A stretch of DNA of 58,131 nt from Catajapyx aquilonaris (Eukaryota). The first letter of the stretch is position 1, and every line of letters begins with the position of its first letter. Under the pieces are notes generated by a model that made no database searches, was not told where the DNA came from, and saw only the letters and a list, made by a program, of their open reading frames with translations. The stretch lies in contig KZ538620.1 in assembly GCA_000934665.2 (NCBI GenBank), positions 1 through 58,131 on the forward strand, written 5' to 3'. The position numbers and the translations under genes were made by a program. Positions 1,896 to 46,761 of this stretch are shown here, in pieces.

Positions 1896-3884
1896 TTAAA
1901 CATCTCCCCAGTAGCGTCGAATACTTGTCAAAATATTGGGTGTTGAGTGAGTTACAATTTCCTTCAAAAATATGACAAGTCCTAGTACAGTTCCTCCCAA
2001 CAATATTATAAATGCACCTTGCAGATTCTCCGAGGAAAATGCATTTGCCCGTCTGTCAGCACTATAACCTCCTCCAGAGTTTTTCTTGGCTATTCTGGCA
2101 AGTCTCCAGGGTACGATAAATTTCCTGAATTTGTCACTTTTTATTCCGAGACCGATGCTGTTAAAAACATGAACTAAATGATTAAAGTTGTTAGAATAAA
2201 TGCTGTCTTTGCCAGTGGCCATTGAAATGTAGTAGACTGCAAGTGAATCGTCAGAGATGAATGTACGAATAGCACCATCACGCGAAAGCAACCATTCATT
2301 CATAAAATAGTCCAATTTCAATGAATTTGCAATGCATACTCGATTCTCATCGAATATAGTTGTCACACACTGTTGCACTTCCATAACTCTGAATATTCGC
2401 TCCAGATCAGGCAACTCTTCCTTTATGTCTGCATCTCCTGAATTCATAAGTGTGTAAAGGGCTTTCTCTATGTTTGCTAAGAATTTGTATTCAATAATTT
2501 CTGGGAATGTGAGCGGTATTTTTTCGGTTGGAGGGTAAGTGAGAAAATAAAATAACTTCGCTTCATACCCAGTGCCCATGATGATTGTAAAGTAATCCCA
2601 GAATAACAGGGCAATCATGAATGACACACAGATACCGCTGTTATTGTCAGGATATTGCTTAAATATCACTCGTGACAAGTACTGAAGACTTCCATGAAAG
2701 TTGTGAAATCTGACTAAGTAATAATTGCTAGGCAGTATTTGTCTCTTTGAGAAATGGGTCAAGAACAAAGCGTACATGAGTAACGAGATGAAGAAATAAC
2801 ACCAGAGTGCAAGTGCGTAAGGATACAAAATGACAAGAGGCGAGTAAATTATGTTGGGTTTGCGAGCAAGGAATGTGACTCGGTCTTGAGCATAAAATGG
2901 AGTCAGATCAAATATCGCGTTTGTAATTCCAATGACGGGAAGGAATGGTAAAAACTCTATGCGTCCTGTTCGGATTTCTTCCAGAAATTCGACTGCTTTC
3001 TTCGTATCTCTCATCAATTCCAGGGCATCGATGTAATCTACAGACCACTTGAAATTGAGAGCTTCTCCCATAAAACAAGTAATAAGAACATGCAAATGCT
3101 CATGCGGTTGGCAGTCTTTGTCACTGAAATTATTGTAAGAAATTCCCTTCAATGCTTTTCGATGAAAATTGTTGGCCGTGTCCTTCAAGAGCATCGAACC
3201 AATGGTGTCTGCCACCATGCTCTCATTCACTAGGGCGGAATAGACTGCTGGTTGTCCACGGTCGCAGAAGAAGCAAACTGAAGACAACTCTGCGGTACCA
3301 TCTTCGTGATGAGGTGAGATGAGAAGCTTGTATTTCAATCCTGAAGCTGGTTTTTGCAGAAGGAGATCGTCTTCTGCTTGTCCGTCTCTGATCCAGATGA
3401 GGAACTTGTCCTTTGTTTTCTTGACCTTGACCACTCCTTCCTCAGGATCCAGCAGCTCCTCCATGGCCTCCTCGTAGTTCTGGCTGCAAGTGGTCACCAG
3501 GTTGACCAAGCACTTGTACTGTCGAGTTGCTTGGAACATTACAGGATCCCCCTCTGGATCACTGTTGGATCCCCTCGAGGAGCAGTCCCACCTCTTCCGA
3601 AGAGAACCATGACTCGATCTGGCCAGCAACACGGGTCTTCCTGCCATGGACATGTTGGAAAGTAGAAGCTCCAAATGTCTGGGCCAATCCCACCCGAGGT
3701 CATGGGTCACGGCCAGGGGGCACTCTGCGGCCACAAGTGAGTCATTATTGAGCAAATTCCGCAATGATCTTGTCACATGTTCGTCTATTACTGATGGCTG
3801 TTGTTGATGAAATGACAGTTCGAAACAATGGATAAAACATATTAGTAGGTGGAAGATGAGAGTAATAATGATTAGAAAGTGCAT
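1896..3884 (-). CDS. Divergent ionotropic receptor (IR, iGluR superfamily), intronless, 662 aa (IR-A)
   Basis: Signal peptide; S1 end TFLARKP; TM1 YPYALALWCYFFISLL; pore-like LQYLSRVIFKQ; YFTIIMGTGYEAKLFYFLTYP (equivalent to iGluR SYTANLAAFLT); last TM ENLQGAFIILLGGTVLGLVIFLKE. Single-exon architecture is typical of divergent chemosensory IRs. Confidence 0.9.
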   Translation of the reverse strand: MHFLIIITLIFHLLICFIHCFELSFHQQQPSVIDEHVTRSLRNLLNNDSLVAAECPLAVTHDLGWDWPRHLELLLSNMSMAGRPVLLARSSHGSLRKRWDCSSRGSNSDPEGDPVMFQATRQYKCLVNLVTTCSQNYEEAMEELLDPEEGVVKVKKTKDKFLIWIRDGQAEDDLLLQKPASGLKYKLLISPHHEDGTAELSSVCFFCDRGQPAVYSALVNESMVADTIGSMLLKDTANNFHRKALKGISYNNFSDKDCQPHEHLHVLITCFMGEALNFKWSVDYIDALELMRDTKKAVEFLEEIRTGRIEFLPFLPVIGITNAIFDLTPFYAQDRVTFLARKPNIIYSPLVILYPYALALWCYFFISLLMYALFLTHFSKRQILPSNYYLVRFHNFHGSLQYLSRVIFKQYPDNNSGICVSFMIALLFWDYFTIIMGTGYEAKLFYFLTYPPTEKIPLTFPEIIEYKFLANIEKALYTLMNSGDADIKEELPDLERIFRVMEVQQCVTTIFDENRVCIANSLKLDYFMNEWLLSRDGAIRTFISDDSLAVYYISMATGKDSIYSNNFNHLVHVFNSIGLGIKSDKFRKFIVPWRLARIAKKNSGGGYSADRRANAFSSENLQGAFIILLGGTVLGLVIFLKEIVTHSTPNILTSIRRYWGDV

Positions 3885-3940
3885 TTTGAATCAACAAAGT
3901 AAAGAAATGAAGGAGTAAGACACTAGGCGTCTAACTAACC

Positions 3941-6173: not shown

Positions 6174-8177
6174 TCAGTATTTCTTTCCGAAAAAATCCTG
6201 AAAACATCTAGCCAGTGATTTTTTCGCCAATACTGTCGAATACCTATCAAAATATTTTGAAGGTACATTTTCCATCAAAAATACGACAAGTGCCATTGCA
6301 GTTCCTCCCAACAGTATGATAAATACCCCTTGCAAATTCTCCGCCGAAAATACTCTTATGTCACTATGACCTCCACCGGGATTTATTTCCGCTATTCTGG
6401 CAAGCCTCCAGTGCAACCAGAATCTTTTGAATCTCTGGCTCTTTATTCCGAGACCGATGCTATTGAAAATATGAACCCAGTGATTGAAGTTGTCAGAATA
6501 AATAGTGTCTTTGGCAAGGGCCATTGAAGAGTAGTAGAATGCTAAGGAATCGTCAGAGATGAATGTCTTAATAGCACCATCACGCGAAGGCAGTATTTCA
6601 TTCATGTAAATGCTCAACAAGTTTGAGTCTGCTATGCACACTCGATTTTCTTCAAATATGGTCCCCACACATTGTTCCATTCCCACAACTTGAGATATTC
6701 TCATCAAATCAGGAAACTCTTCATAGAGGTCTACATCCCCTGAATCCAGAACTGTGTAGAGATCCTCCTCTATATTTGCTAGGAAAATCGATTCAGTTAG
6801 TTCTTGGAATGTGAGAGGTATTTTTTCTGTTGGAGGATAAGTGAGAAAATAAAATAACTTCGCTTCATACCCGGTTGCAATGATGATTGTAAAGTAATAC
6901 CAGAACATCAAGGCAATCATGAATGACACACCCATCCCTCCATGATTGCCTGGATATTGCTTAATTATCACTCGTGCCAAGTATTGCAGATTTCCGAATA
7001 AAGTGTGAAATCTGATTGAGGAATTTCCAAGCAGTGTTTGCTTCTTAGAGAAATGGAATATGAACCAAGCGTACATGAGTAACGAGAGGAGGAAACAACA
7101 CCAAGGTACAAGTGCGTAAGGGTACAGGATGACAAGAGGCGTGTAAATTATATTGGGTTTGCGAGCAAGGAATGTTAGTCGCTCTTGAGCATGAGACGCA
7201 GTCAGGTCAAATATCGCGTTTGTGATCCCAATGACTGCTAAGTGTGGTATAAACGATATGCGTCCTGTTCTGATATCTTCCAGCAATTCGATTGCTTTGC
7301 TCGCATCACGCGCCAAATTATGGAAATCAACATAATCCACAGCCCACTTGAAATTGAGACCTTCTCCAATAAAACATGTGACAAGAAAAAGCAAATTATT
7401 ATGCGGATGGCAGTCTTTGTCAGTGAAATTGTCATCACTACACACTCCCTTTAGTACTTTCCCATGAAAAGTATTGGCCGTGTCCTTAAAGAGCATTGAA
7501 CCGATGTTGGTGTCTGCCACCATGCTCTCATTCACTAGGGTGGAATAGATGACTGGTTGTCCACGGTTGCAGAAGAAGCAGACTGAAGAGAACTCTGCTG
7601 CACCATCGTCGTAATGAGGGGAGATGAGAAGCTTGTATTTCAATCCTGAAGCTGGTTTCTGCAGAAGGAGATCGTCTTCTGCTTGTCCGTCTCTGATCCA
7701 GATGAGGAACTTGTCCTTTGTTTTCTTGACCTTGACCACTCCTTCCTCAGGATCCAGCACTTCCTCCATGGCCTCCTCGTAGTTCTGCTGGCAAACGGTG
7801 ACCAGGTTGACCAAGCACTTGTACTGTCGAGTTGGTTGGAATGCGACGGGATCATCTTTGGGATCACTAGATCCCCCCGATGAGCAATCCCACCTCCTCC
7901 GATCAGAACCAGTCGATTTGGTTAGCAGGACAGGTCTCCCTGCCCTGGACATGTTGGACACCAGGACCTGGAGGTGACCCGGCCAACCCCACCCGAGGTC
8001 ATGGGTCACAGCCAGGGGACACTCTGCTGTCACAAGTGAGTCATTGTTGAGCAAAGCCCACAATGATTTAGCCACGTGTTCGTCAACTACTGATGCTTGT
8101 TGGTGATGGAATGACGGTGCGTAACAATGGATAAAACATATTGGTAGGTGGAAGATGAGAGCAATTGGCAGGCGCAT
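6174..8177 (-). CDS. Divergent ionotropic receptor, intronless, 667 aa (IR-B)
   Basis: Colinear paralogue of IR-A with the same hallmarks (TFLARKP, TGYEAKLFYFLTYPP, ENLQGVFIILLGG). Confidence 0.9.
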   Translation of the reverse strand: MRLPIALIFHLPICFIHCYAPSFHHQQASVVDEHVAKSLWALLNNDSLVTAECPLAVTHDLGWGWPGHLQVLVSNMSRAGRPVLLTKSTGSDRRRWDCSSGGSSDPKDDPVAFQPTRQYKCLVNLVTVCQQNYEEAMEEVLDPEEGVVKVKKTKDKFLIWIRDGQAEDDLLLQKPASGLKYKLLISPHYDDGAAEFSSVCFFCNRGQPVIYSTLVNESMVADTNIGSMLFKDTANTFHGKVLKGVCSDDNFTDKDCHPHNNLLFLVTCFIGEGLNFKWAVDYVDFHNLARDASKAIELLEDIRTGRISFIPHLAVIGITNAIFDLTASHAQERLTFLARKPNIIYTPLVILYPYALVPWCCFLLSLLMYAWFIFHFSKKQTLLGNSSIRFHTLFGNLQYLARVIIKQYPGNHGGMGVSFMIALMFWYYFTIIIATGYEAKLFYFLTYPPTEKIPLTFQELTESIFLANIEEDLYTVLDSGDVDLYEEFPDLMRISQVVGMEQCVGTIFEENRVCIADSNLLSIYMNEILPSRDGAIKTFISDDSLAFYYSSMALAKDTIYSDNFNHWVHIFNSIGLGIKSQRFKRFWLHWRLARIAEINPGGGHSDIRVFSAENLQGVFIILLGGTAMALVVFLMENVPSKYFDRYSTVLAKKSLARCFQDFFGKKY

Positions 8178-8225
8178 TTTGAAACTAAATAACTTAGTCG
8201 CGAAATAAAGAACTGAACTAAACTC

Positions 8226-8370
8226 CCTCTATACTGCACTGTAGTGAGTGAAATGGGCAGCCCAGTATGTGATGTGACATAACATTTTGCGACAGACACA
8301 TGTCTCCAATGTGCCAACCCTGCAATTTTACGCACTAAAACACATCACACTTGCGTAAGCTCATCATTAC
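8226..8370 (-). promoter_or_regulatory. Conserved IR upstream block (copy 2)
   Basis: Same motif order as 3941-4090 and 10700-10830. Confidence 0.5.
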
Positions 8371-8660: not shown

Positions 8661-10631
8661 TCAAACCCTCCGAGACTCTGAAATATGTCCGCGGGATTTC
8701 TTGCGGAAGGGAATCCTGAAAACATATTGCCAGTCAATTTTTTGCCAGTAGTGTCGTAGAGGTGTCAAAATAATTAATGTTGAGTGAGGTGCAATTTCCT
8801 TCAAAAATATGACAAGTGCCAGTAAATTTCCTCCCAGCAATATGATAAATGCGCCTTGCAAATTCTGAACAGAAAAGGCAGATTCACTTCTGCCTCTACA
8901 ATCTCCTCCGACATTTTTCTCCGCTATTCTGGCAAGTCTCCAGTGATTCATAAATTTGCTGAATTCGTTGCTCTTTATTGCGAGGCCGATGTTATTGAAA
9001 ATTTGAACGAAATTATTAAAGTTGTCAGAGTAAATGCTGTCTTTTGGCAAAGCCCATAGAAGCGTAGTAAAATTCTAACGAATCTTCAGAGAGGAATGTC
9101 CGAACCACACCATTGCTCGTAGAAGGCAGTATTTCATTCATGTAAGCGATCAACCTGCTTGAGTCTCCTATGCAGACTCGATTTTCTTCAAAAAATATTG
9201 CCGTAACACACTCATCCAATCATAAGCCTTGAAATTCTCACTATATCAGAAGCCAATTTGTCGGTGTGTGTGTCGCCTGAGAGAACAAAAGTGAAAATAG
9301 TGAATTCTATATTTGCTGCGAATCCGTATTCAATAATTTCTGGGAATGTCTTCGGTATTTTTTTCCGTTGGAGGATAAGTGAGAAAGTAAAATAGCTTTG
9401 CTTCATACCCGGTGTCTACAATGATTATAAAGTAATACCAGAATAACACGGCTATCGTGAATGACACACTCATCCCGCCCTTATCGCTCGGATATTGTTT
9501 AATTATCACCCGTGCCAAGTACTGAAGAGTTTCGAAGAAGTTGCGGAATCTCACCGAGGAATTTCCTGGCAGTATCTGTCTCCTAGAGAAATGGAACAGG
9601 AACAAAGTGTATATGAGTATCGAGAAGAGGAAACAACACCAGGGTACAAGTGCGTAAGGGTACATGATGACAAGAGGTGTGTAAATTACGCTGGGTTTGC
9701 GAGCAAGGAAAGTGACTCGATCTTGTGCATAAGATGTAGTCAGGTCAAATGTCGCGTTTGTTATTTCAACTAAGGTAAAATACGGGATAAACGATATCCT
9801 CCCGTTTCTGAAATCTTCCAAAATTCCAAATACTTTGCTCGCATCTCTCATCAACCCTTGGAAATCAACAGAATCTACAGTCCACTTGAAATTGAGAGAT
9901 TCTCCCATAAAACAAGTCATAAAAGTAGAAAGGTCCACATGATTCGGATGGCAGTCTTTGTCATTGAAGCCGTAAATAAAAACTCCCTTCAGTTCTCTTC
10001 CATGAAAATTGTTGGCCGTGTCCTTGAACAGTATCGAACCAATGGTGGTGTCCGTCAGAATGCTCTCATTCACTTGGGTGGAATAAATGACTGGTAGTCC
10101 CCGGTCGCAGAAGAAGCAGGTGAGATGAGAAGCTTGTATTTCAATCCTGAAGCTGGTTTCTGCAGAAGGAGATCGTCTTCTGCTTGTCCGTCTCTGATCC
10201 AGATGAGGAACTTGTCCTTTGTTTTCTTGACCTTGACCACTCCTTCCTCAGGATCCAGCACTTCCTCCATGGCCTCCTCGTAGTTCTGGCTGCAGGTGGT
10301 CACCAAGTTGACAAGACACTTGTAGTCTCGAGTTGCTTTGAATGAGAAGCCCTTTGAATCCCTAGCCGATTTGGCCAGCAGGACAGGTCTTCCTGCCATG
10401 GACATGTTGGAAAGTAGAAGCTCCAAATGTCTGGGCCAATCCCACCCGAGGTCATGGGTCACGGCCAGGGGGCACTGCGGCCACAAGTGAGTCATTATTG
10501 AGCAAAGTCCGCAATGATCTTGTCACATGTTCGTCTATTACTGATGGCTCTTGTTGATGAAATGACAGTTCGAAACAACGGATAAAACATATTGGTAGGT
10601 TCAAAATGAAAGTAATTATTAGGATGCGCAT
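8661..10631 (-). pseudogene. Ionotropic receptor pseudogene (IR-C), about 5 frameshifts
   Basis: Colinear with IR-A/B from ATG 10631 (MRILIITF) to stop 8661 but split over six ORF fragments. Lesions: 2-nt deletion ~10474 (ggcactgcgg vs ggcactctgcgg in IR-A), 37-nt deletion ~10118 relative to IR-A, extra T in a homopolymer ~9360, indels ~9218 and ~9052. Confidence 0.85.
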
Positions 10632-11629: not shown

Positions 11630-14600
11630 ATGCTGTCCCGACCTGGATTTATTCTGGGACGGCGGATATTTTATGCGGCCAAAGCATCTCTGCGGATCAA
11701 GAAGGACGACCCGCGCCAGCTGAACAATGGGGTTGTCTGCCTCTGGTGGGGTCATAGGTCGTGCAGCACTGGGGAGAAGAGCGTCGCAGGGGCAAAGGTC
11801 GAGGTAGCTGAAGCTGGAGATGAGAAGACAAAGGCGGCTAAAATTATGGAGGCGGTCACCAAAGGTTTGTTACCGCAACAGGTGCGGAGGTAGATTAACA
11901 GCGGCCTTCTCATTGCAGTAATTCCGGTTGGTAAGAAGCGGAAGCAGCAAGACAGGAGTACGGAGTCGTTGGAGCGCAACTTTATTACGCCAGTGAGGGC
12001 AATGTCAGATTTTCTCCTGAAGCCGTCAGACTTGGAAGGGTTGAGGAAGACCAAGCGGAGATCGCCTTATGAGAACGAGCCTCCAATCACCGTCTACTGG
12101 AGGAAGGATGTGGAAGCAAAGGCCGTTGAGGTCTGGAAAACTCCTGAGAACCTGGAGAGGGAAAGGAGGAAGAAACTCCAGGAGATGAAGGAATACCAGG
12201 AGAGTTAGTCACTTCTCATTTAAATGCTTTAGTTCCGCACTTGATTGGGGGCAATTAGAGCAATGGCTCCATCAAAATTTGTACCGTTCCGTATGGAGAA
12301 TAAGTTAGCCAAATTTTTGCATTAAAAATGTCGTGCAATTAATATTGTTACTTCCAGACCTGTGCCTCAGTGACCTTTTTTTTTTTGCACTCTGCAAAAG
12401 CCATGGCATATATCTGGCATGAGGTAATAACTCTGTGACGGATGTGACTAATATGCTGAATTTACGGTCACCTTGAAAGTGGTGCGAGATCACTGTCGAC
12501 TACATTCCTATCAGAAACACCAGAACATAAATTGGCTGAATGAGTACATTAATTATGTTACGTGAGATGGAAAGGACATTGCCTGAACATTTTGTTATCA
12601 TTTTATTTTATTTTTATTTTGTTTTGTTGCGTGTTTGCTTGCTTGCATGCTGATTACTATTTTATTACGGATCCAAAAGTAAAAAGCACACGATATGCAC
12701 GGAGATCATCAGGCAGAACATTGAGTTTTATATCAAATGCGTCTGTGTACATATGGACTCGCAGTTTGCAAGCATGCAGGTTATTCCTTCCAGGCGTGTT
12801 CAATGTGAAACGCATCCTGAAGGACGTGCGCAAGGAGCAGCAATCGCAGCAACTTCGCGATCAGCAGGGAGATGAAGAGCGGATGGGACTCAGGGGAAGC
12901 GCAGGAAAAGTCGTTCTAACTGCTGTTGCCATGTGAGTGAATGATTTGTTGCGCCCTCAGTCTGTCACTAATCTTTTAAACCTTTTCAGCAATGGCTGCA
13001 ATTTCCTGTTCAAAGGCTTCGCCTGGTTGTACACTGGTTCACACTCGATGTTTTCGGAGTGCATCCACTCTCTGTCGGACACTGTCAACCAGCTCATCTT
13101 GGCCTTCGGAATTCACAAGTCAGTGCAGAGGGCAAACACGGACCACCCGTACGGCTACAGCAGCATGAGATACGTGGCCTCCCTCATCTCAGGGGTGGGC
13201 ATCTTCTGCGTTGGGTCAGGAGTGTCCATATACCATGGGATCCTGGGGATTACTAATCCACAGCCCATGGAGTCATTTTTTTACGTAAGTTGGTGTGGAG
13301 CGTTCATTTAACTGGCAACATTTATTTGCAGCAGGCTTCATGAAGCTTACTGATCACTATTTGCATTTTTGAAATGAATTTTGGTGTTTTTTGTTGGAAG
13401 AAATAAACATTAGTTTTCGAGCTATGATTGAGCTAAGATCATAATGAGTATACGGTATCGTATTGCCCTCTGACGTCACTGTTGTAAAAAAAAAACCAGG
13501 TTGCTTTGTTGCCTAACAATGGAATCAAATGACCGCCAATCAGCCAATTAGCCGAATCGAACGACCGCGAGGCAACGACTTGCTGACGTCACTGTTGTCC
13601 GAGGCCAGGCCCCCGTTTTTCCTGCCAATTTGCGAGTGACTTTTAAATCCCCGATAGTTTATCTAGGAATGACATTTTGGTGCCGAAAAGTGGTGGATTG
13701 CTTGTTTATATGTATGGTTGAGCTATTCGTGTACCAAATACCCAAATCCCAGGCCAAGGATAGGACCCCATTGACGTGGTTTCCATAATTATGGAGTTTT
13801 AACATTTAAATAACTTTGACCATTTTCAACCACAAAAAGCTGCAATAATTAGGCTCAATTTTTCTGATATACAGTAGTTTGTGGCCTTGATTTATTTTTT
13901 TTGCAAAAACATTCACCTTTGATTCAAAATCAATGCTTCCCTCAAACCTCATCATATTACTTGACAATTTTAGTTGGAAGTACAGAGTGATTCATATAGG
14001 ACCAAACCCTTTCAATTAGCTCTAACTTACTTGCAGAAATAAGTGTACTCTGAAATACAGATTCAAACTGAATAAAAAGTCAGGATGAACTTTGGAGCAA
14101 TATTGTTGGTGGCGCTGAAGGTTATCTTCTTCCTTGTCACACATGTTGGAAGTTCCTGCCGGGTGCGTCTAAACGCAACACTGCACTTTTGCCCCATGTC
14201 ATTGGCTGTTCTTTGGAGCATGTCACCATCACTCTGCCAATTTCACTACCAGTATTGTGCAAGTTACTGTGGGCGATTCAGGTTCTTTTCCGGAAATTCT
14301 TTAGCTGCAAATTAAGGAAGATACTAGACCTTTCTAGATGTTTCTGCTTGTATCCCGCAGGCCTTTTTCATCCTTGGCGGTTCCCTTGTGTCGGAAGGTG
14401 CCACGTTACTCCTCGCCATAAACTCAATTCGCGCTGGAGCAAAGGAGAGCCAAATGAGCTTCTCGGAGTACGTGCTGAGAGGGCAGGACCCAAGCATCAA
14501 TGTCATCCTACTGGAGGACCTGGCCGCAGTGTTGGGTGTTGGGATAGCTGGTACCTGCATGGGACTTGCCGCCCATTATGGGACCCCCATTCCTGATGCC

Positions 14601-15161
14601 GTAGGGTCGCTACTTATAGGTGGTTTGCTTGGAGGAGTTGCCTCATTTATTATCTACACTAATACAACTGCGCTAGTTGGAAGGTAACTATTGCTATTGA
14701 TGAAGTATCAGCTTGTAGACCAGTGTTTAACAGTACTTTTGCAGGTCAATACCATGGGAGCGGCTTGAGACGATGAATGCGGAATTGGAAGCAGATGTAA
14801 TGATTCGTGCTATCCACGACGTGAAAGGAATTGACATAGGGAACAGGCTCGTGAGGTACAAGGCTGAGGTGGATTTTGACGGCAGAGAGCTCTCCAGGTC
14901 CTATCTGGACAGGCAGGACCTGGACTCGCTGCTGGAGGAGGCCAAGTCTATGACTACCATTGAGGAGCTGGAGGTCTTCATGCTCAAGCATGGGGAAAAC
15001 ATTGTCGATATGCTAGGTGCTGAGATCGACAGGATTGAGGGGCAGCTCAAGGTTAGTGTTAACATCACGACTGATTTTTTAACATTTGTGCTGTCAATTT
15101 GTGTATTTGTTTCCAGAAACGTCACCCGGAGATCAGGCATTGTGACCTGGAGATTTTGTAG
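11630..15161 (+). CDS. SLC30A9: Zinc transporter 9 (cation diffusion facilitator family), 7 coding exons: 11630-11864, 11919-12203, 12794-12932, 12990-13284, 14361-14683, 14745-15051, 15117-15161
   Basis: All six introns are GT-AG and the frame is continuous. ZnT9-type motifs: NFITPVRAMSDFLLKPSDLEGLRKTKRRSPYE..VYWRKDVEAKAVEVW; GSHSMFSECIHSLSDTVNQ; HPYGY; VILLEDLAAVLG; RYKAEVDFDGR; C-terminus KRHPEIRHCDLEIL*. The Arg-rich N-terminus resembles a mitochondrial presequence. Confidence 0.95.
13668..13697 (-). repeat. Short dispersed repeat, also present twice in introns of the LRR gene
   Basis: aatgacattttggtgccgaaaagtggtgga is the near reverse complement of ccaccacttttcagcaccaaaatgtcatt at ~41461-41493 and ~42418-42449. 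Confidence 0.6.
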
Positions 15162-15407
15162 ATTACAGCTACATTAATCAAGAAAATTGTATTGTATGGA
15201 CCATGAATATTGTTGGGAATTTATTTATTTGAGAGGGATAACTGTGATTGTGAATAGCAAACTCTGTATATAGCTAACGTTTAAAAAAAAAAAAGACAGT
15301 TGTGAACACAAGCACAGTAATTTATGTCTGTGTGGATGAGTAAACTTATTTGCTTGATTATGGTGTTTCATTAAAATATTGTGTTCATGCCATGTCCAAT
15401 CTAAAGG

Positions 15408-16963: not shown

Positions 16964-17251
16964 ATGGCCAGCAGCATCAGGAGGAGGATTTCGGTCGTTT
17001 TGATGGCCACTGTGGTCACCACTGTTGCTGCTCTTCCCAATCCGGATTCTCTGGACTTTTCGGTGGTTCCTGTGACGTCAATCGGTCAGGATGACGAGTG
17101 GGAATTCCTCCCTGAGATTTTCCAGGAAGAACCCGTAGTTGTCGGACCAGCATCCAGGGACATCACGCATCAGATACTCACAGTATGTTTCCACACACAC
17201 GCACAAAACATTTAGTCATGCTGTGTACTGTACACATGGCTTGATTTAGCT

Positions 17252-17298
<47 letters not shown>

Positions 17299-17425
17299 CG
17301 TAGTCGTCGTCGTCGTCGTCGTAGTCGTAGTAGTAGTAGTCGTCGTCGTCGTAGTCGTAGTAGTCGTCGTCGTAGTCGTAGTAGTAGTAGTAGCAGTAAT
17401 AGTAGTAGTAGTAGTCGTAGTAGTC

Positions 17426-17469
<44 letters not shown>

Positions 17470-19584
17470 CGTCGTCGTCGTCGTAGTAGTCGTAGTTTCA
17501 CCCTATGTAATTATTTAAAAAAAATATAAAACCAAAACTAGGGACTAAGGGAATTCACTACAGTTTTAAAAATTTCAGGCTCCCTTTTTCTTTGTTGTAA
17601 AGAAAATTCTGATGTTTTAAAAATTTTACAACCGGACTCTGGTATGTTCTCCGGTTGTAAGTATTCCACCAACTACTACAGAGAAGGCGTACAATATAAG
17701 AAAGATGGCGGGCTGATAAAATAAACTGAAGGAGAGTGTTTATCCTGAGAGTGATGCAAACCAGGAGTGGTTTCAAGACATGAGGCGCCTATAACAGAAA
17801 CTCGTTATATTTCCGAGTACATTCGACTGAAGCTGGGAAAAACTATGTAGTGCTAAAAAAAAAGGGCGCGAAAGACGTGTGTGTTCACCTTCCATGAAGA
17901 TTTATCTCTTCTGAAATACTCAGGATTTCGCGGTCTGGCTTTTCATCCTCAGCAGGACCTGACTAGCTGCTCCTGTGAAAAAGTGTTGCATAATATGCTT
18001 AGTAGTAGAGGGGAAATCTCATGGGGTTTTGCCTGATGGATTTAGTTGCTTAGGAGCTTCCAATAAAACCCAAAATTCGAGAATAAATAATTGGTAATAA
18101 TTTTACAAGCTGATGTTGCTAGAAGAGTTTCAAATGAAATGAGTTTAGTCACAAATGTACCATATTTATTGCTTACTATAATGGTGAATGCGTAGAAATG
18201 ATCAAATTCTTTTTTGACAGGAAGTGTCTTCCAGCAGAAAGACAGGACTAAGCCAAATAGGCTCAATAGCAGGACTATATTTGGTGACAAAGGACTTTAG
18301 GATATGCGAGCCGGACAAGCTTCGTGATGTCATCAATGCTTCCTTGCAACTAGACAACTTCTACAAGAGCAGGAGAAAAAACAACAACCTTCAAGCACAA
18401 GGACCTCGATCAGATCCAGTTGTAAGTTAATAACATCACCTGTAATTAACGGGTAATTAACCACCACATTTTATGTCATCAAGGATGATGTCATCAAGTT
18501 GCAAGAACTGTGCAAAGCTGCAAACGGATCTAAGAGACATTCTAATTCGGTTCATGACCCTTTGTATCATGGGTACGGAGGATTCCCGTCGTTTCTGGCA
18601 GCCAACATGAAAATTCCCAGTAAGTACAGTGTGTCATTTATGCTGCTTAATAAGTGAAACATTTGTTTAAAAAATTATTTTTTAATGTCAGATGCGGCAG
18701 AAGCGAAGCAAATAGACAAGATCCTGAAGGACACAAAGTCCGCTTGTAGCCCTAAGAAAACGGTGGTGGACATACAACCGGATCCAAACCCGAACATAAA
18801 GTACTATCCAGGCTGTTTGATGATAGAGAGATGCGGAGGATGCTGCGACTCGGAGATAACTCACTGCATCCCGGTACCAGAAGGAATCAAGAAGAAAAAG
18901 AAGAAGGTCAGTCCTGGATAGGTTTTAGATTCAAATAGAATCAGACTTACTTTTGACAATATACGATATGACTTTCCAATATTTTAAGGTGATCAAGTTC
19001 CACATGAACGGAGGACAGTTCGACAGCTTCTTATTGAAACCAGTTGTGGTGGAGAAACACACCAAGTGTCAGTGTGTCTGCAAGGTGATTAAATTTGACA
19101 CGGTTTTATGATAATATAATTAATTCGTGGGTGTGTGCAGATTCAGGCGTCTGATTGCACAACGCTTCAGGTGTATGACGAATCAGCGTGCAAGTGCAAG
19201 TGCACTAATGTGGATGAAGCGATTATGTGCAATTCTCCTAGGGAGTGGGACACAACTCAGTGCAAATGCAGGTGTCCCAAAGTGGAGGACTGCACCACCG
19301 GAAACTTCTTTGACCCTCTTCTCTGCAGGTGAGATTGGTCAGCAGTTTCCAATAATTCTACAGTATTCGGCAAGAAAAAAAAAACTTCTCTTGTTCACAT
19401 AATATCGTATTATTATTATTATCATTGGAAACAATTTTTGGAGGTGACAGGAAATCCTGTGCGAAATTGTAACGTTGCCCTTTAGCCTTTTTGCTTACTA
19501 ACTTTGTGCTTATCTTTTTAATCTATGAATAGATGCGTGACGCCGGAAACCATCTACCAAAGAAACCAACTTGGCAGCAGATAA
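16964..19584 (+). CDS. Canonical PDGF/VEGF-related factor (Pvf-A) with VEGF-C-like CXCXC tail; exons 16964-17182, 18221-18421, 18484-18619, 18692-18906, 18989-19084, 19141-19328, 19533-19584
   Basis: Signal peptide; long pro-region with basic sites (KSRRK, SKR); all 8 family cysteines present: ACSPK..YPGCLMIERCGGCC..HCIP..EKHTKCQC; then CKCKC and CKCRC repeats. All introns GT-AG and in frame. Confidence 0.92.
17251..17496. repeat. Compound trinucleotide microsatellite (AGT)n/(CGT)n in Pvf-A intron 1
   Basis: About 245 bp of interleaved tag/tcg units in a single register. Confidence 0.95.
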
Positions 19585-20227: not shown

Positions 20228-22295
20228 TTACATCATGACGTCGTCTTCTTCCATCATGACCTGCCGACATCTGAAATGCATAAAACCGAATGATTATCCT
20301 GTAAATGGTGTGACATATTTTTACCTGATCCAACTGCACGAATCTGAACCAAAGCGTTTGTTTATGAAAATTATGAAATTATGAAAATTATGAATTTTTT
20401 TCCCCCAATCCCACAGATAAAACGTGAATTTCTGGTCACTGTTAACAGTTTACTGTTCATAGTAAGTTTTTTTTTTTGCTTTCAATTTTACGTTATTGAG
20501 CCACGGTTAAGAGCTAGAGAAATGAACACAAACTGACTTAACTGCCGTGCTAACTGTCTGTTAAAAATAGGAAAAACCCAGTATAACACTGCAGTGAATG
20601 ATGAACTGACTGTATATATATGAGTAATAAACAACCTGGACACGAATAACTAAGTTTGACCTTTATGTATGACACAGTGTGTTCCAGTTTAAATGCTTGT
20701 AGTGTTACGCTATTGCTTCTTATCATGTATAGTTACATTTGACCAGTTACCTCTACCAGGGAGCATATACTACATAAGAGGCACAAACATTCGATTTCCG
20801 CGTCTCTCTGTTTGGAGCGTTGCCAAGGCTGGCGGCCATCTTGAAGTGTGGGGAACGCCAACGAGGTATAAATAGGGTACAGGCAAAAATAGGGTCCGCC
20901 ATCTTTGATTCGCGCGTGTTCTTGCCGTGTAGTTGCCATGGCCGCCAAAACCATCAAAGATGGTGGACCCTATTTTTGCCTGTACCCTATTTATACCCCG
21001 TTGGCGTTCCCCACACTTCAAGATGGCCGCCAGCCTTGGCAACGGCCCCAAACAGAGAGACGCGAACATCAAAGCCGCCGACAGAAGTTTGCGCCTCTTT
21101 GCTCCCTGCCTCTACTACCAGCAGTTATTCCTTTAAAAAGAATGTGTCAACCGTGGAATTTACCTGCAGATGGAAGGCACCCAGAGGAGTCCAGTGGTGC
21201 ATTCCTTAGAGGTATTGGTACAGTCACACTGGCACGTGTGAGGGTTCCATCTCCTGTCGGTTTGTGCTTCACACATGGCCTGCTTGTCACTGTCTATGCA
21301 ATTGCACCGGCACTCATCCTCCAAGTACACCTGACTCTCGGTGCAATTCTCTTTGCGAACAGCGCAGTCGTACTTGCAGGTTACGTGTTCCTCCACTTCC
21401 AGCAGACCACACTTCTCGAATACCCTGCCGTGAAGCACAACCTGCCAAAAAGAAAATTACTGTACAATCTGGTCCGAAAAACATCCTGGTAGTCAGGCCA
21501 CCAAGCCTGCTCCCAAACAATACAGAGACATGTAGACTGACTCTCAGGATGAAAGGCAGTTGTGCACTTATGTCGTCGCGACCGAGAGCATATTTTTATG
21601 CTGTATGTTTACTTTGACATATAATGATGATTACCTGCACTTGCATCATTTTGGTATTGCCGGGCATGCAGTCCAGCAGCCCTTGCGGTGCTCCGGAGCA
21701 GCGGTTCACCTTCACATGTGACGGCGACATCTGAAATGTGTATATACAGGATGTGTTGTATGTCACCTAATAATATTCGGAATTCACTGCATGTCTGAAA
21801 GGTTTTGATCAATGGCATCCTGGTGCTGTCTGACCATCAGCACTCTAGCCAGGTTAGGGCTGTTTTTTCCCCCCTTGATTTTGAACATCTAGAGTGCTGC
21901 AGGATACGATTGTTCCAAACCTGTCGTTGTGGCATTGATTTACGTTTTCCTTGTGCAGCTCTGCGCTTCTGGGCAATTCCACTATAGAAGGCAATGGCTT
22001 GCAACGGATATCCTTCACGTGCTTCCTCACTTGCTTCAGGTGGGCGTTTGTACACAAATCTTTAAAGGAAGCAACTTTATCAACAAAGATAGCTGGAGTA
22101 GAATGTAGGATTAGAGGCTACTAAAATATAGCATATGTAGAAACTTACAGTAACTTAATCATAAATCCTTCTGAATAAGATATTATTTTTATTGAAAAAT
22201 TTAATCGAATAATAAGGTAACTTACTGTGTGGTGAGAAGGTTCCATGAGCTGCCGCAACGGCTAATAATAATACGAGGAAACTGTTTCCAACCAT
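20228..22295 (-). CDS. Atypical PDGF/VEGF-like secreted protein (Pvf-B); exons 22295-22226, 22059-21944, 21730-21635, 21441-21164, 20270-20228
   Basis: Spliced product MVGNSFLVLLLAVAAAHGTFSPH-NLCTNAHLKQVRKHVKDIRCKPLPSIVELP...-MSPSHVKVNRCSGAPQGLLDCMP...-VVLHGRVFEKCGLLEVEEHVTCKYDC...CRCNC...CQCDC...ICR-CRQVMMEEDDVMM*. GT-AG introns; exon lengths match Pvf-C. Confidence 0.85.
20757..21108. mobile_element. MITE with CAGGG...CCCTG termini, ~110-bp internal inverted arms and a 7-bp target-site duplication (cctctac), in Pvf-B intron 4
   Basis: cctctac at 20750-20756 and 21109-21115; terminal cagggagca / tgctccctg; near-perfect arms ~20799-20909 and ~20953-21064. CA..TG ends with a 7-bp TSD fit P-element-like, or less likely hAT, non-autonomous elements. 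Confidence 0.85.
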
Positions 22296-23215
22296 TATTC
22301 TTGTGTGCTGCTTGTTCTGACTCTAAGCACAGAGTGGTGCTGGCTTCCCGTCGTACAGGTAGTATGTAGCTACTCTAATCATACTTATATTGCATCAACA
22401 CTTCCGGCTTGCCAGTGTTTTCCGCGATGAATCTAAAAGGAAGCTGCGGTTTTCCCCAGCACACCGCAACATTTCGACAACTTATCACATCCATTTTTAG
22501 CATCATTATAGGCCTACCAGCAAATGTCTCTGACAGTCAAACTGAAACTTCTTTGCGTCATTGGGATATTGTGGAGGTTGTTCTCTCTGTTATAAGGAAG
22601 ATGAGGCTTCTGAGAATAATTAATGCTTGAAAGTGGTGGGACAATTAGTCTGCCTGCGATTAAGGGTTATTAATGAATGAAGAAAGTGGTGACATAATAT
22701 ATGATTCCATGTCCTTCACTAACGTTAGAACAATGACCTTCAGATATATGCCCCCAAGTGATCAAGTACTTCTGTACCGTATGTATATCCTGCTTGTATA
22801 GTAGTTGTATCTCTAGGGTAAGTCACTGGTGTATTATACATTGTCAAATTGTATAATGGGTCGAAAATGTTTGATTAGTAATCAATTACCTCATGCAAAC
22901 ATCGGGAGCGAATTAATTTAACGTGAAAATGTCTGGTAAAAATAATTATTTTTAAACGTGTATATGGAAAGAAAGCAACAATACACAAATAATTTGCGAA
23001 TATTGCTTCTCTATAGCTTTTGTCACTATAGAATTTCTGATCTATGTCCTATTGCGGCTATTATAATAATAAACTCATCAAATAAAATAACTGTTGCTTT
23101 AAATATACGGTAGATTATAATATTATACAATACCATTAGCAAATAGTGCAGAAATTGACAGGCAAATATGTTGTGTTTTGCATAAAGCTCGGGCTGGTAT
23201 GTAACGAAAAACTTC

Positions 23216-23294
23216 TTTTAATTCAATACCCACATATAAGCCTACATACTCCCAGTATGTATGCCTACGAGTATATGTGGGTATTGAATTAAAA
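23216..23294. repeat. Perfect 23-bp inverted repeat with an inner stem (hairpin or MITE remnant)
   Basis: ttttaattcaatacccacatata (23216-23238) / tatatgtgggtattgaattaaaa (23272-23294); inner tacatact-ccc-agtatgta. Confidence 0.75.
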
Positions 23295-23728
23295 CCAGAT
23301 TTTCGTCAGCATCATGAAATAATCAAAACAATATTTTGTTCAACTCATGCCTGTGTAGGTATATAGTATTGGACTGGCAGGAACTGCACGAAGCCTTATT
23401 GATGAGTCAATTGAATAACGAAGAAAAAAAAATGGGCAGCATATAAAGGACAGGGAGAATATAATCATCATTCCTTATTGTATGTCCAACTTGTATATTT
23501 TAAAAAGTGCTACATTTGCTTGACAAATGCTTGATATATTACAGCTACTGAAAAATGACAATAGAATGAGTAATCACTGCAAAGAAAAATTATGACAAAA
23601 TCACCACATCACTTTTCAAGTTCTCTTTATTTATGGCGGAAATTTTCATCTTTACGAAGAGGGTATAAAAACATGATTGCACTCCTGATACAGACATTCA
23701 TGAACCATTTGGATGTGATCGAGTCTTC

Positions 23729-24726
23729 TTACATCATAACGTCATTGCCCTCCATCATGACCACCCGGCATCTGAAACACGAAATTGAATTAATTTTTAC
23801 CGCTCAAAACTTGAATTGATAAAATCTTAATTTGCTTATTACAGTTTCCTTGTTACTTGACGATCATTATTAAATTCAGTAGGCCTAATAAATGAATGAT
23901 TTTTATTGCAATATGAATAATGCGAGAGAGAAACTTCAGTGCTGGAAATACTTACTTGCAGAGAGCAGGCACCCAGAGGAGACCAGTGGTGCATTCCCTG
24001 GGTGCATTTTTACACTGGCACTCGCATGTGCGATGGTTCCATTCCCTGTCGGGTTGTGTCTCACACATGGCCTTCTTGACCTCGTCCATGCAGTGACACC
24101 TGCACTCAGTCTCTAGGTACACCTGCTGATCGTTGCAATGCTCCTCTCGAACGGCGCACTGGTACTGGCAGCTCATATGCTCCTCCACTTCCATCGTCCC
24201 GCACTTCTCGGACATACTGCCATGAAGCATAACCTGCCAGAGGAAAACATTACATCTCATGTATTCAGAGTACACGATGATGCTTACCTCGACTGGAACC
24301 ATCTTGGTATGTCGGGGCATGCATGCCAACAGACCGCTTTGTGCTCCGGTGCATCGGTTCACCTTCACATGAGACGGAGACATCTGAAAATGGACTCATT
24401 GTGTCACCTGCACATAATTTGAGATGTACTGTACAGTCCAGTCGCGGTACTTACGCTTTGCGCGTGCGGATGGGCGCTTCTGGGCAATCGCACTATTGAA
24501 GGCAGTGGCTTGCACCGGATATTCTTCATATGCTGTCTGAGCTTCATCAGGTGAGATTCTGAACACGAATCTACACAAAAAAACAGCATAATAATAATAA
24601 TTCAAGAACTATTTTGAGACACCATTGCTTAGATGTTAAGCAATGAGTCAACTTACTGACAGGGACAAACGTCCCATGTGTTGCCGCAACAATGGCAAGG
24701 AGGACGAGGAAACTGGCTCCGACCAT
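23729..24726 (-). CDS. Atypical PDGF/VEGF-like secreted protein (Pvf-C), tandem paralogue of Pvf-B; exons 24726-24657, 24570-24455, 24383-24288, 24233-23956, 23771-23729
   Basis: MVGASFLVLLAIVAATHGTFVPV-NSCSESHLMKLRQHMKNIRCKPLPSIVRLP...-MSPSHVKVNRCTGAQSGLLACMP...-VMLHGSMSEKCGTMEVEEHMSCQYQC...CRCHC...CECQC...LCK-CRVVMMEGNDVMM*. Same exon lengths (70/116/96/278/43) and phases as Pvf-B. Confidence 0.85.
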
Positions 24727-43395: not shown

Positions 43396-44754
43396 CTGTA
43401 AACAATAGATTAATTAATATCACCTGACCTAATTATTTCATGTAAACTGTACTTACATTCTTTACCCTGCTCTGCCTGGACCTTTTTGACGAAACTGATT
43501 TTGTTCTACGTGAAGTCGACGACATTGTGATTTAGATATGTCAAATACCCCGAGGTCCAGATATTAAATATACGTAAAATTTAGACGACACTAAAATTTG
43601 TCCCACACTCAGAATTTACTGGCCAACAAAATACATGTTTCTAAGGAGATTGAAAGTCATCAAAATAACGAGCCTCATTGTTGCATGTTATTGGTAAGTT
43701 ACGTACTGTGCAGTATATTGAAAAATCGGTCTTGCAATATCATGACTGCGCTGGATGTCTGCTGGAAAAATAATCCGTCGCTCATTTTATTACCACGCGA
43801 GTGGCGGAGTAACAATATGAAAATTTAAATGCCAAAATAGCTTTACTGATAACATGAAACACACATTCTGCTAAGTAAAACGTGATTATTATTACTGCAA
43901 GAAATAATTATTACATATGAGAACACATTAGCTGCAGAAAATTACATCATGATTGTAATGGTGCTTTCCGGCAGCCGATAAACCTATAACAGGAATAGTA
44001 TGAACTATTATTGAAAAAGTAAGATTATGCCATGTTTTTTACGCTGACCCAAAGTCTCCAAAATCAGTTGCAACTATTTTAAAAGCTGGCAGTGGATTAA
44101 TAATGTATATTTATAAACTACACGTAACTTAGTATTTTTTCCAAAAGTATACAATGCGTATATACATAGTTGTGCAAAAATAATCAATGACAAATAACAT
44201 GGGCAAGTATAGAGGACACCTCTTATGGCTTCAGTCAAATCATATCAAAATCATATCAAGTGTATTTCGGTAGCTATAATAAACCAAAATATGGGCCCAG
44301 GTAAAGCAAGTACTACTGTATTTTCCTGCACATAATTAATAATTAGATTGTATAAGTATACAAGGTGTATTACCTCAGGTGCAGGAAGCCATTTTGAGCA
44401 TGGGATTTTACCTCCTCAAAAATTGCACAAAAAATTTAAATCACAATTTTGTTAATCAGTGATTGATCCAAATTCGATGTTCACAAAAGCCTGATAGAGA
44501 GGTGCCTGTCTCTTTTCTTCGCTAATTCAATGTTACTTTTTTCCCTTCCCCATCACTCAAACAAATCAAACAAATGTAATTTCTATCTGTCAGATCACTT
44601 CCTGGTGACCTTTTCTAAGTGGCCGCACTCTGTTCTGTAAACATTGTCCATGGTCAGCAAAGCACTCATTAGCATCAAGTATTTATGATCATGGTGTCGA
44701 GTGCCTAATGGACTGTAACGACGCGGGATTAGGAGCAGTTTAGTCACAAAAACA

Positions 44755-46761
44755 ATGTTGGTCACACATTGGTTAGTTGGGCTCCTGGTTGCCTATTACT
44801 TTGGATTTCTCGGGACTGCGAGTAACGTATCTCTAACATCACGCGAATCACTAGATGTGACACTTGTCCAGCATGTCATTCGAAGCATCTCTGATCGGGA
44901 AGATTTGCGTATGTGTTCGTTGGTTGTGTCTACTGACTCTAGGAGTTTGCTTGCTTACCCTGGACAGACACTATTGGCTCGTCAATCACAGAAGTATCTC
45001 CCTGCGCAATGTGTTTTCATGGAAAAATTTGCATTAGACTATCGCGACTATGGCTATCTGAGAAACGACGATGATCTGTTGGACTTCCGCTCGTTTCCTC
45101 CTCAGCTGATGTCCCAGGCATGGTCCGGAATGGCGTGTACTATGCACCTCCTGATGCCCAGCACCCCAAACACCTTCGCACAACTGATGATGCATACAGC
45201 TACCCAAGTCAAAATTGCTCTCGATCACGACCGATTCTTCGTCCACTTTCGAACCGGAAGCAACGAAGAAGTGCACCAAATCATGACATCGCCCCCTGGA
45301 AGTGCACTTTGGCTGAAGATTTTCTCCAGGATGGAATTGGAGCAGACTCTTCATGTGGAGACGGCCTGCTTCTTCTGCGGAAACCAAGGAACAACCAAGA
45401 TCCTTCCGTTGGGATTGGTTGACAACCGCCTGGAACCTCTGAAGGTCGACGGTTTCTTTCGGGTCAATGAGAAGTACCGGATGAACAGCAAGACGGTCCG
45501 GGCCGGAGCGTACTACCTGCAACTGGACACGGCAGACCTCAAGAGACGCAAGAAGAAGTACGGAGAGAGATATCTGACAGACTCAGAGCGAGCTCTCCTG
45601 TTGTGCGAGCTGGCCCTGAATGTCACCATGGATCACTTCACGAAGGAAATCGAGGGCCTGTCAGAAACACAAAATGCCAACGGATCATGGGAAGGTCTGA
45701 CAGGTGACATCATATACGACAGAGCGGACGTGGCTGTCCCCACGTTTTTCCTGGAGGACTCGATCAAGTACGTGTACATGCCTCATCCGTTTGTCTACAC
45801 CTTCGCCACTTTTGTGACACGGATTCCCTTAGGGGTTGTCACTTGGAAAGTGCTGTACAGGCCGTACGAGATGCCATTTTGGATCTCCTTCTTCATCAGC
45901 GTGGTGGTCGTGGCCGTCTCAATTTGGGGCCTGTCACTCAGAGGTCGCAGGATCAGCAAATGGGAAGCACTTGATAGAGTATTGCGAGCCATGATTGATC
46001 AACCAGTTCCGTTTCCGAAAGAGGGTTATTTCCTGGTGCTGGCCTCGTTTTTCCTCTTCTTCACCATGGTAGTTGTCACTGGATACAAGGCCAAACTGGT
46101 CGCGTTCCTGACGTATCCACCTAGAGAATATGTCCCGGAGGATTTCCGGCAGCTGTATTATTCCGGTTGGAAAATTGAGTTGGATCAAGTCAATTATGTC
46201 CTGTTCGACCGAATCGGTAGCTATACCAATGACTGGGAAACCGTAATGTTCCTGAAGAAAATGGAAATGGGCGATAGCGTCCATAGCTGCCTGGAGAGAA
46301 CAGCTTCAGAACAGGTCGCATGCGCTGGAATAAATTTTCTTCTGGAGCGAGAGCTGTACCCATTTCGAGACACGTCTGGAATGCCGACAGTCCAGTTCAC
46401 CAGCGAGACTAGATACCCGTCATACGTCGGTGCGTCAATGTCTCGAGGGAACCCGGGAATCTACTACTACGAGAGGAATCTGATTCGACTTGTGCTGGAG
46501 ACCAACATCGTGGACACGTACGTGGAACAGTACATGTACCTGATGTTTCTGCGAGTCCTGAGCGACATTCGGGCTAGAGAAGAAGCGAATTATCAGGGGC
46601 CTGACGAGCTGATGACCATGACGAAGCTGTCGGCTGTGTTCAACATGCTCTTCTTCGGCCTGTCACTTTCGACGGTCGTGTTGATCATCGAATACGTACG
46701 TGCAGGTGCGAAGAAATTTAGGGTGAAGGGAAAAGTGTCTCAGCATCCGTTTTTGAAGTAG
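44755..46761 (+). CDS. Divergent ionotropic receptor, intronless, 668 aa (IR-D)
   Basis: Signal peptide; S1 NGSWEGLTGDIIYDRADVAV; TM1 RPYEMPFWISFFISVVVVAV; FFTMVVVTGYKAKLVAFLTYP; last TM KLSAVFNMLFFGLSLSTVVLIIE. Confidence 0.92.
   Translation: MLVTHWLVGLLVAYYFGFLGTASNVSLTSRESLDVTLVQHVIRSISDREDLRMCSLVVSTDSRSLLAYPGQTLLARQSQKYLPAQCVFMEKFALDYRDYGYLRNDDDLLDFRSFPPQLMSQAWSGMACTMHLLMPSTPNTFAQLMMHTATQVKIALDHDRFFVHFRTGSNEEVHQIMTSPPGSALWLKIFSRMELEQTLHVETACFFCGNQGTTKILPLGLVDNRLEPLKVDGFFRVNEKYRMNSKTVRAGAYYLQLDTADLKRRKKKYGERYLTDSERALLLCELALNVTMDHFTKEIEGLSETQNANGSWEGLTGDIIYDRADVAVPTFFLEDSIKYVYMPHPFVYTFATFVTRIPLGVVTWKVLYRPYEMPFWISFFISVVVVAVSIWGLSLRGRRISKWEALDRVLRAMIDQPVPFPKEGYFLVLASFFLFFTMVVVTGYKAKLVAFLTYPPREYVPEDFRQLYYSGWKIELDQVNYVLFDRIGSYTNDWETVMFLKKMEMGDSVHSCLERTASEQVACAGINFLLERELYPFRDTSGMPTVQFTSETRYPSYVGASMSRGNPGIYYYERNLIRLVLETNIVDTYVEQYMYLMFLRVLSDIRAREEANYQGPDELMTMTKLSAVFNMLFFGLSLSTVVLIIEYVRAGAKKFRVKGKVSQHPFLK

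Follow-up and report, generated by a model that had tools for sequence, protein, structure and literature searches.

The cystine knot is held to be the defining and indispensable core of the PDGF/VEGF growth factors, the signature of which comprises eight cysteines (C1 to C8), with C2 and C4 serving the inter-chain bonds and C5-C8 forming a disulfide of the knot's ring. Factors in which a VEGF homology domain is followed by CX10CXCXC (BR3P) repeats have been described with C2 and/or C4 missing (PMC10328876, in its accessible part), and the dimer of such factors must therefore be non-covalent or otherwise bonded. The same part of that source states that VEGF-C and cysteine-mutated VEGF-A still dimerise, and, among vertebrates, singles out PDGF-C as exceptional with regard to the inter-chain cysteine. 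In the laboratory, human VEGF-A has been engineered without the C5-C8 pair (C61A/C104A; 1MKK) or without the C2-C4 pair (C51A/C60A; 1MJV), and the available passage of a review reports that the VEGF-A disulfide mutants (Muller et al. 2002) differ only in loops or in monomer arrangement (PMC3328748). IL-17 ligands are likewise cystine-knot cytokines, and the accessible part of PMC11087794 describes repeated losses of single knot disulfides among them (types T1B, T1C, T2 and T3) with persistence of fold and signalling; they belong to another family with another type of receptor, and no homology to them is claimed here. In this study we analysed a stretch of 58,131 nucleotides from Catajapyx aquilonaris (positions 1 to 58,131 of contig KZ538620.1, assembly GCA_000934665.2; hereafter the window), in which two tandem PDGF/VEGF-related genes, Pvf-B and Pvf-C, encode proteins that have lost both the inter-chain cysteines and the C5-C8 pair while being under purifying selection.

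Pvf-B and Pvf-C resemble the factors of PMC10328876 in lacking inter-chain cysteines and in having a VEGF homology domain followed by what, by eye, are CX10CXCXC repeats. By contrast, the losses described in the accessible part of that account concern inter-chain cysteines only, whereas Pvf-B and Pvf-C are also without the knot pair. The VEGF-A mutants are laboratory variants of vertebrate VEGF-A that lack a single pair each, whereas Pvf-B and Pvf-C are natural proteins with both pairs missing. No published description of the loss of a knot disulfide in PDGF/VEGF proteins was found in the open-access literature, supplements aside. Vertebrate PDGF-D presumably lacks one of the eight cysteines, for which the literature search returned no confirming passage; if so, it is a family member that functions with an incomplete signature.

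Cysteine positions were mapped with a MAFFT alignment of 149 domains, consisting of three window proteins (the neighbouring Pvf-A included) and 146 database matches. C1, C3, C6 and C7 are cysteines in both Pvf-B and Pvf-C, and these are the only members of the eight-cysteine signature that remain. In exon 3 of each gene (21635..21730 in Pvf-B and 24288..24383 in Pvf-C, both on the minus strand), which also carries C3 and C6, the C2 position is His (codons 21718-21716 and 24371-24369, respectively), the C4 position is Ala (21691-21689 and 24344-24342), and the C5 position is Pro in Pvf-B (21688-21686) and Gln in Pvf-C (24341-24339). Exon 4 (21164..21441 in Pvf-B and 23956..24233 in Pvf-C, minus strand) encodes a loop-3 Cys (21411 and 24203), C7, a Tyr at the C8 position (21372-21370 and 24164-24162), an invariant Cys four residues after C7 and a Cys-rich tail of the CXCXC type. 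An extra N-terminal Cys is found at 22054 in Pvf-B and at 24565 in Pvf-C. Codons and alignment thus bear out the replacement of C2, C4, C5 and C8 that an earlier note on this DNA had read from the translations. Given that the pattern is common, codon for codon, to two paralogues differing at about 35% of residues, it is not due to chance. A cystine knot consists of three intrachain disulfides, two of them closing a ring and the other passing through it, and in Pvf-B and Pvf-C the ring cannot close because C5-C8 is absent and no Cys lies between C3 and C6. With the required cysteines absent, both a true knot and the canonical C2-C4' covalent dimer are ruled out, as that note had also concluded.

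The Cys in the C-x-Y-x-C motif was considered as a shifted C8 and rejected. Of the full rows other than Pvf-A, 119 of 119 have this Cys, and nearly all of them carry C8 as well; in Pvf-B and Pvf-C, furthermore, no Cys with which it could form a ring bond lies between C3 and C6.

Both genes lie on the minus strand (Pvf-B at 20228..22295, Pvf-C at 23729..24726), each with five exons including the stop codon. Joined by coordinates, the exons are 22295-22226, 22059-21944 (or 22092-21944), 21730-21635, 21441-21164 and 20270-20228 in Pvf-B, and 24726-24657, 24570-24455, 24383-24288, 24233-23956 and 23771-23729 in Pvf-C. GT-AG boundaries are found at all eight introns and neither reading frame is interrupted, so that, together with the codon check, C5 and C8 are jointly lost in two intact paralogues, as had been supposed. 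Exon lengths are 70, 116, 96, 278 and 43 nucleotides in both genes when acceptor 22059 is taken for Pvf-B, giving 200 amino acids each; the second in-frame acceptor of Pvf-B exon 2, upstream at 22092, adds 11 residues (211 amino acids). Direct repeats of at least 40 nucleotides between the two loci are limited to five segments with 71-81% DNA identity, and these are the five exons; no alignment is left between the introns, the lengths of which differ two- to five-fold. That the sole aligning stretches between the loci coincide with the five exons supports the gene models.

The two proteins are 65% identical (130 of 200 aligned residues). Four estimators gave 0.22-0.24 nonsynonymous (dN) and 0.59-0.75 synonymous (dS) substitutions per site for the pair, with dN/dS ratios of 0.30-0.38; by region, the ratio was 0.27 in the N-terminal part, 0.38 in the core and 0.30 in the tail. 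Bootstrapping of codons led to a median dN/dS of 0.32 with a 95% range of 0.20-0.51, and none of the 500 resamples reached 1. Furthermore, all 18 of the 18 cysteines stand in columns shared by Pvf-B and Pvf-C. The two genes are thus not decaying but under purifying selection, and the proposal that the cysteine loss represents a maintained structural state rather than decay has stood up.

Homology of Pvf-C to the PDGF/VEGF family is clear from a phmmer search with its open reading frame (ORF) against 1.84 billion representative proteins, in which 250 proteins were matched at E<=1e-3 and 11 at E<=1e-10. The best match, P0001 (E 1e-18, 44% identity), carries PF00341 and is named 'vascular endothelial growth factor A' in its source, the cricket Anabrus simplex; nothing nearer was present among the representatives. 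With the same ORF, a sequence search of the PDB returned a chance-level match only (obscurin, E 1.1), and a word-indexed protein search returned one candidate, none being scored. A feature-based look-up with this ORF, and another with a neighbouring ionotropic-receptor-like ORF of 684 amino acids, led to clusters in which Arthropoda is the most frequent known phylum, a lead only. By eye, exon 4 contains two CX10CXCXC (BR3P/CXCXC) units in both genes, for which the Pfam CXCXC model scored 14.1 bits in Pvf-B and 11.9 bits in Pvf-C against a cutoff of 15. The alignment took in 146 of the 150 listed matches of the 250; the other four did not fit the pattern used for cropping and were inspected visually.

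Types were counted over the 120 of 149 aligned rows that span C1 to C7. C2, C4, C5 and C8 are all present, with no extra Cys, in 59 rows including Pvf-A (class I). Another 53 rows lack C2 and C4, keep C5 and C8 and possess the loop-3 Cys; we refer to the clade that they represent as class II, a name coined in this analysis and not a published one. All four cysteines are absent in three rows (Pvf-B, Pvf-C and P0033), C2 and C4 are kept with C5 and C8 absent in two (P0012 and P0107), and C8 alone is absent in one (P0069). The last two rows have C2 without C4 and C4 without C2, respectively. The loop-3 Cys precedes C7 by 11 residues without exception (57 of 57 class II rows), and an N-terminal Cys occurs 15-19 residues before C1 in 48 of the 53 class II rows keeping C5 and C8, the other five being N-truncated or odd. 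A FastTree phylogeny splits the 57 class II from 63 class I rows with a support of 95 and places Pvf-B and Pvf-C within class II, as sisters with a support of 100. As the split is a single deep one, absence of C2 and C4 together with presence of the N-terminal and loop cysteines represents one evolutionary event rather than 50. In addition, proteins of class II are shorter (median length 236 against 308 amino acids), with C1 at a median residue of 56 as compared with 123 in class I. Pvf-B and Pvf-C agree with class II in the missing C2 and C4 cysteines, in the spacing of the N-terminal and loop cysteines and in a short N-terminal region (C1 at residues 43-54). Judged by the alignment, the two extra cysteines are a character of the class II clade that goes with missing C2 and C4 rather than with missing C5 and C8. 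The suggestion of the earlier note that they substitute for the C5-C8 bond is not supported, since class II relatives with an intact C5-C8 pair carry them too. Two events that the note had treated as one are thereby told apart, an old exchange, across the whole clade, of C2 and C4 for the N-helix and loop-3 pair and a later loss of C5-C8.

Naming is inconsistent across class II. P0033, from the sawfly Cephus cinctus, is called 'balbiani ring protein 3' in its source and has no precomputed Pfam domain, whereas P0001 is listed under the VEGF-A name given above. Annotation pipelines probably miss or mislabel the class II clade, and PVF (PDGF/VEGF-related factor) repertoires in arthropod genomes may be under-counted because such proteins fall under Pfam thresholds and at least one of them bears a misleading name.

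Joint loss of C5 and C8 was found in class II (Pvf-B, Pvf-C and P0033) and in class I (P0012 and P0107). P0012 and P0107 are set apart on the tree by strongly supported branches, and the sister of P0107 is P0069, which lacks C8 only. Over the 120 full rows, both cysteines are lost in 5, C8 alone in 1, C5 alone in none and neither in 114 (Fisher p 3e-8, or 6e-7 with Pvf-B and Pvf-C counted once; the rows are related and these values are indicative only). Further cases were seen by eye outside the alignment or among partial rows: in P0098 (class I) C5 is Ser and C8 is Tyr, in P0063 (a fragment from class II) they are Val and Leu, and in P0091, which is similar to P0012, C8 is Phe. A partial row, P0082, has Glu at C8. 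The residue replacing C8 is hydrophobic or aromatic (Tyr, Phe, Val or Leu) in 8 of 9 sequences without C8, P0069 counted. Free trees place Pvf-B and Pvf-C apart from P0033; a single clade of the three was not rejected by the approximately unbiased (AU) test (p 0.587), the constrained tree being better by 4.4 log-likelihood units. The sequences compared thus point to a paired C5-C8 loss that is rare but recurrent, including at least two class I lineages keeping C2 and C4. The pattern is therefore not unique to the window, since alignment and inspection by eye both recovered it in other arthropod proteins. Pvf-B and Pvf-C, being natural paralogues under purifying selection, thus offer, with the paired losses in other arthropod lineages, a natural experiment on whether the knot serves folding, stability or half-life.

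As a natural protein in which the same four positions are substituted, P0033 served for modelling fold and dimer formation, together with 52 aligned class II proteins. Like Pvf-B and Pvf-C, P0033 belongs to class II. Its C2 position is occupied by His and its C8 position by an aromatic residue (Phe), neither C4 nor C5 is present, the cysteines of the N-helix and of the loop are both there, and the CxC..M motif near the C-terminus is similar. The model had a mean predicted local distance difference test (pLDDT) value of 89.2, and its best PDB matches were chains of VEGF-F, VEGF-A, VEGF-E, VEGF-B and VEGF-C (E 2e-5 to 1e-4, root-mean-square deviation 1.4-3.1 A). Target-normalised template modelling (TM) scores to VEGF chains among the top 17 Foldseek matches were 0.69-0.82, and the VEGF-A mutants 1MKK and 1MJV are among the structures matched. 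Modelling of residues 36-150 as a pair of chains gave a dimer score of 0.59 (0.58, 0.59 and 0.59 in separate runs) compared with 0.00 for the best control, the runs having at least 81% of contacts in common and a partner pLDDT of at least 77. In benchmarking, 21 of 30 homodimers of known structure attained this mark, as against 0 of 23 proteins known as single chains; the corresponding figure in eukaryotes was 17 of 29, but only 1 of 7 where no older solved relative exists. P0033 is thus predicted to keep the VEGF fold, in which an N-terminal helix is combined with an elongated sheet of four strands, and to form a VEGF-like homodimer. The interface lists contain residues 41-46, with the N-helix Cys46, and residues 120-124, with the loop Cys122, and Cys122 of one copy contacts residue 53 in the helix of the other. 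These modelled contacts are compatible with an inter-chain bond from the N-helix to loop 3.

Taken together, we consider it reasonably probable that Pvf-B and Pvf-C are functional, secreted, tandem class II PVFs with an open knot that still serve as Pvr ligands; secretion, disulfide pairing, receptor binding and dimerisation of Pvf-B and Pvf-C themselves are what we infer from the findings above. In such a scheme, the class II clade would have the N-helix Cys and the loop-3 Cys with the inter-chain C2 and C4 absent, and the ring disulfide C5-C8 would have been lost as a pair in the Pvf-B/Pvf-C lineage before duplication. The bonds remaining would be C1-C6, C3-C7 and a presumed N-helix to loop-3 bond, leaving the knot open. 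Loss of the ring bond would leave the beta-sheet fold of VEGF and its antiparallel dimer intact, with the Tyr at the C8 position filling the space of the missing disulfide. The proteins would still act on the Pvr receptor tyrosine kinase, and their thermal and proteolytic stability would probably be lower.

Several points weigh against this interpretation. The evidence on fold and dimer comes from a proxy, as P0033 is only about 30-38% identical to Pvf-B and Pvf-C in tblastn pieces, and its dimer score may reflect the memory that the prediction model has of solved VEGF dimers. In scans of single exons, the Pfam PDGF model (PF00341) reached E 4.4e-5 and 24.1 bits on Pvf-B exon 3, under the 27-bit cutoff, and gave no match to the Pvf-C ORF. 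Once the trait columns are removed, the tree does not resolve the position of Pvf-B and Pvf-C inside class II. The dN/dS of 0.32 is a mean over both lineages and is compatible with a recent relaxation of one copy, and transcription and splicing of the two genes are modelled from genomic sequence.

A more far-reaching proposal is that class II as a whole rewired the disulfides of the VEGF fold, that the knot ring is dispensable and that Pvf-B and Pvf-C are selected, signalling-competent 'open-knot' VEGFs, which we put forward tentatively and as rather doubtful. According to it, the C2-C4' inter-chain bonds would have been replaced by the N-helix to loop-3 bond, which would connect the two chains at the receptor-binding pole, given that the N-helix and loop 3 are both part of the predicted dimer interface; this cysteine pair is not mentioned in the accessible part of PMC10328876. 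The ring disulfide would then be dispensable on the class II background and would have been lost as a pair several times. If open-knot signalling holds true, PDGF/VEGF proteins can function in vivo without the cystine knot.

Less likely again is the idea that Pvf-B and Pvf-C are secreted, non-signalling modulators, that is, antagonists or decoys that would bind to Pvr or to other PVFs while being monomeric or only weakly dimeric. Such a function change would fit the long stem branch of the pair (1.1-1.5 changes per column) and the absence of C2, C4, C5 and C8 altogether, and the adjoining canonical Pvf-A could be the true agonist. However, the lack of C2 and C4 is common to all 57 class II rows, and for P0033, which shares the pattern, homodimerisation via an interface of the VEGF type is predicted, at a score far above that of any control. 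The monomeric modulator suggested in the earlier note has thus gained no support, and no finding speaks specifically for an antagonist or a monomer.

That the two genes are young pseudogenes or decaying duplicates, with the cysteine losses as mere damage, is improbable. Half of the eight signature cysteines are missing, the Pfam scores are under threshold and both genes are known from genomic sequence alone, all of which could be expected of decay. By contrast, both ORFs are intact with canonical splice sites throughout, the exons are conserved next to introns that have diverged past alignment, and both the dN/dS of 0.32, with no bootstrap at or above 1, and the conservation of all 18 remaining cysteines are at odds with relaxed constraint. 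Moreover, it is the two partners of a bond that have disappeared, an even number of cysteines being left, and other species have proteins with this paired loss as well. Finally, exon models that are wrong, with real transcripts using other exons that restore CC and CxC, can hardly be credited: the models do come from sequence only and Pvf-B exon 2 has two in-frame acceptors, but tblastn of Pvf-A and seven relatives, and also of Pvf-B and Pvf-C, over the whole window found no exon restoring either motif and no further PDGF-like exon in or near either locus, the same five-exon structure was found independently in both genes, and the intron 11-12 codons past C6 is common with Pvf-A.

The ends of the two genes show further conserved features. 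Exon 1 of both encodes, by eye, a hydrophobic stretch with a small-residue motif at its end. The terminal mini-exon of 43 nucleotides (20228-20270 in Pvf-B and 23729-23771 in Pvf-C, minus strand) encodes a conserved CxC-x-x-(V/I/M)-M followed by acidic residues, and a loose form of this C-terminal pattern matched 17 of 57 class II rows compared with 1 of 62 class I rows. Vertebrate VEGF-A has a short last exon, which the position of the mini-exon recalls. Intron 4 measures 893 nucleotides in Pvf-B and 184 in Pvf-C, and much of this difference is explained by a noncoding inverted repeat at 20811..21051 in Pvf-B, with 99-nucleotide arms that are 95% complementary and 43 nucleotides apart. It is possibly a small foldback element or one resembling a miniature inverted-repeat transposable element (MITE).

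Pvf-B and Pvf-C belong to a group of three PDGF/VEGF-related genes within 16.9-24.8 kb of the window, the third being Pvf-A on the plus strand. Pvf-A is a canonical class I paralogue with Pfam and PDB matches, for which a partial model was obtained at 18484..19584. Its exons are approximately 18484-18619, 18692-18906 (C1 to C6), 18989-19084 (C7 and C8), 19141-19328 (tail) and 19533-19584, and further 5' exons are likely near 16.95-17.2 kb and 18.22-18.42 kb. All eight signature cysteines are present, domain and tail together covering 18692-19584. The domain exon matched Pfam PDGF at E 2e-10 and human VEGF-A chains in the PDB at E 2e-8, and the tail passed the Pfam CXCXC model with 20.7 bits (cutoff 15). 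A phase-0 intron 11-12 codons past C6 is common to Pvf-A (18906/18989), Pvf-B (21635/21441) and Pvf-C (24288/24233). The remaining intron positions differ, Pvf-A having no intron between C1 and C2 but one past the C7-x-C8-x-C motif. A trinucleotide microsatellite of about 300 bp at 17216-17518, which would read as poly-Val, poly-Thr or poly-Ser/Arg depending on frame, probably lies in a Pvf-A intron.

Just upstream of Pvf-A, exons of a cation-efflux (zinc transporter-like) gene are located at 12937-15174 on the plus strand, where two ORFs matched Pfam Cation_efflux at E 2e-21 and 3e-7. Four long intron-free ORFs at 1899-3890 (-), 6177-8228 (-), 9333-10247 (-) and 44719-46758 (+), encoding 664, 684, 305 and 680 amino acids, respectively, gave weak Lig_chan matches under the Pfam cutoff (E 4e-5 to 2e-4), and one of them (684 amino acids) falls in arthropod ionotropic-receptor clusters with a score of 0.98. 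They probably constitute a small array of variant ionotropic receptor genes of the chemosensory type flanking the Pvf cluster. Toward the far end of the window, two ORFs with multiple C2H2 zinc fingers are present at 51071-51985 (+) and 56656-57159 (+), matching zf-H2C2_2 at E 4e-60 and 2e-34, respectively.

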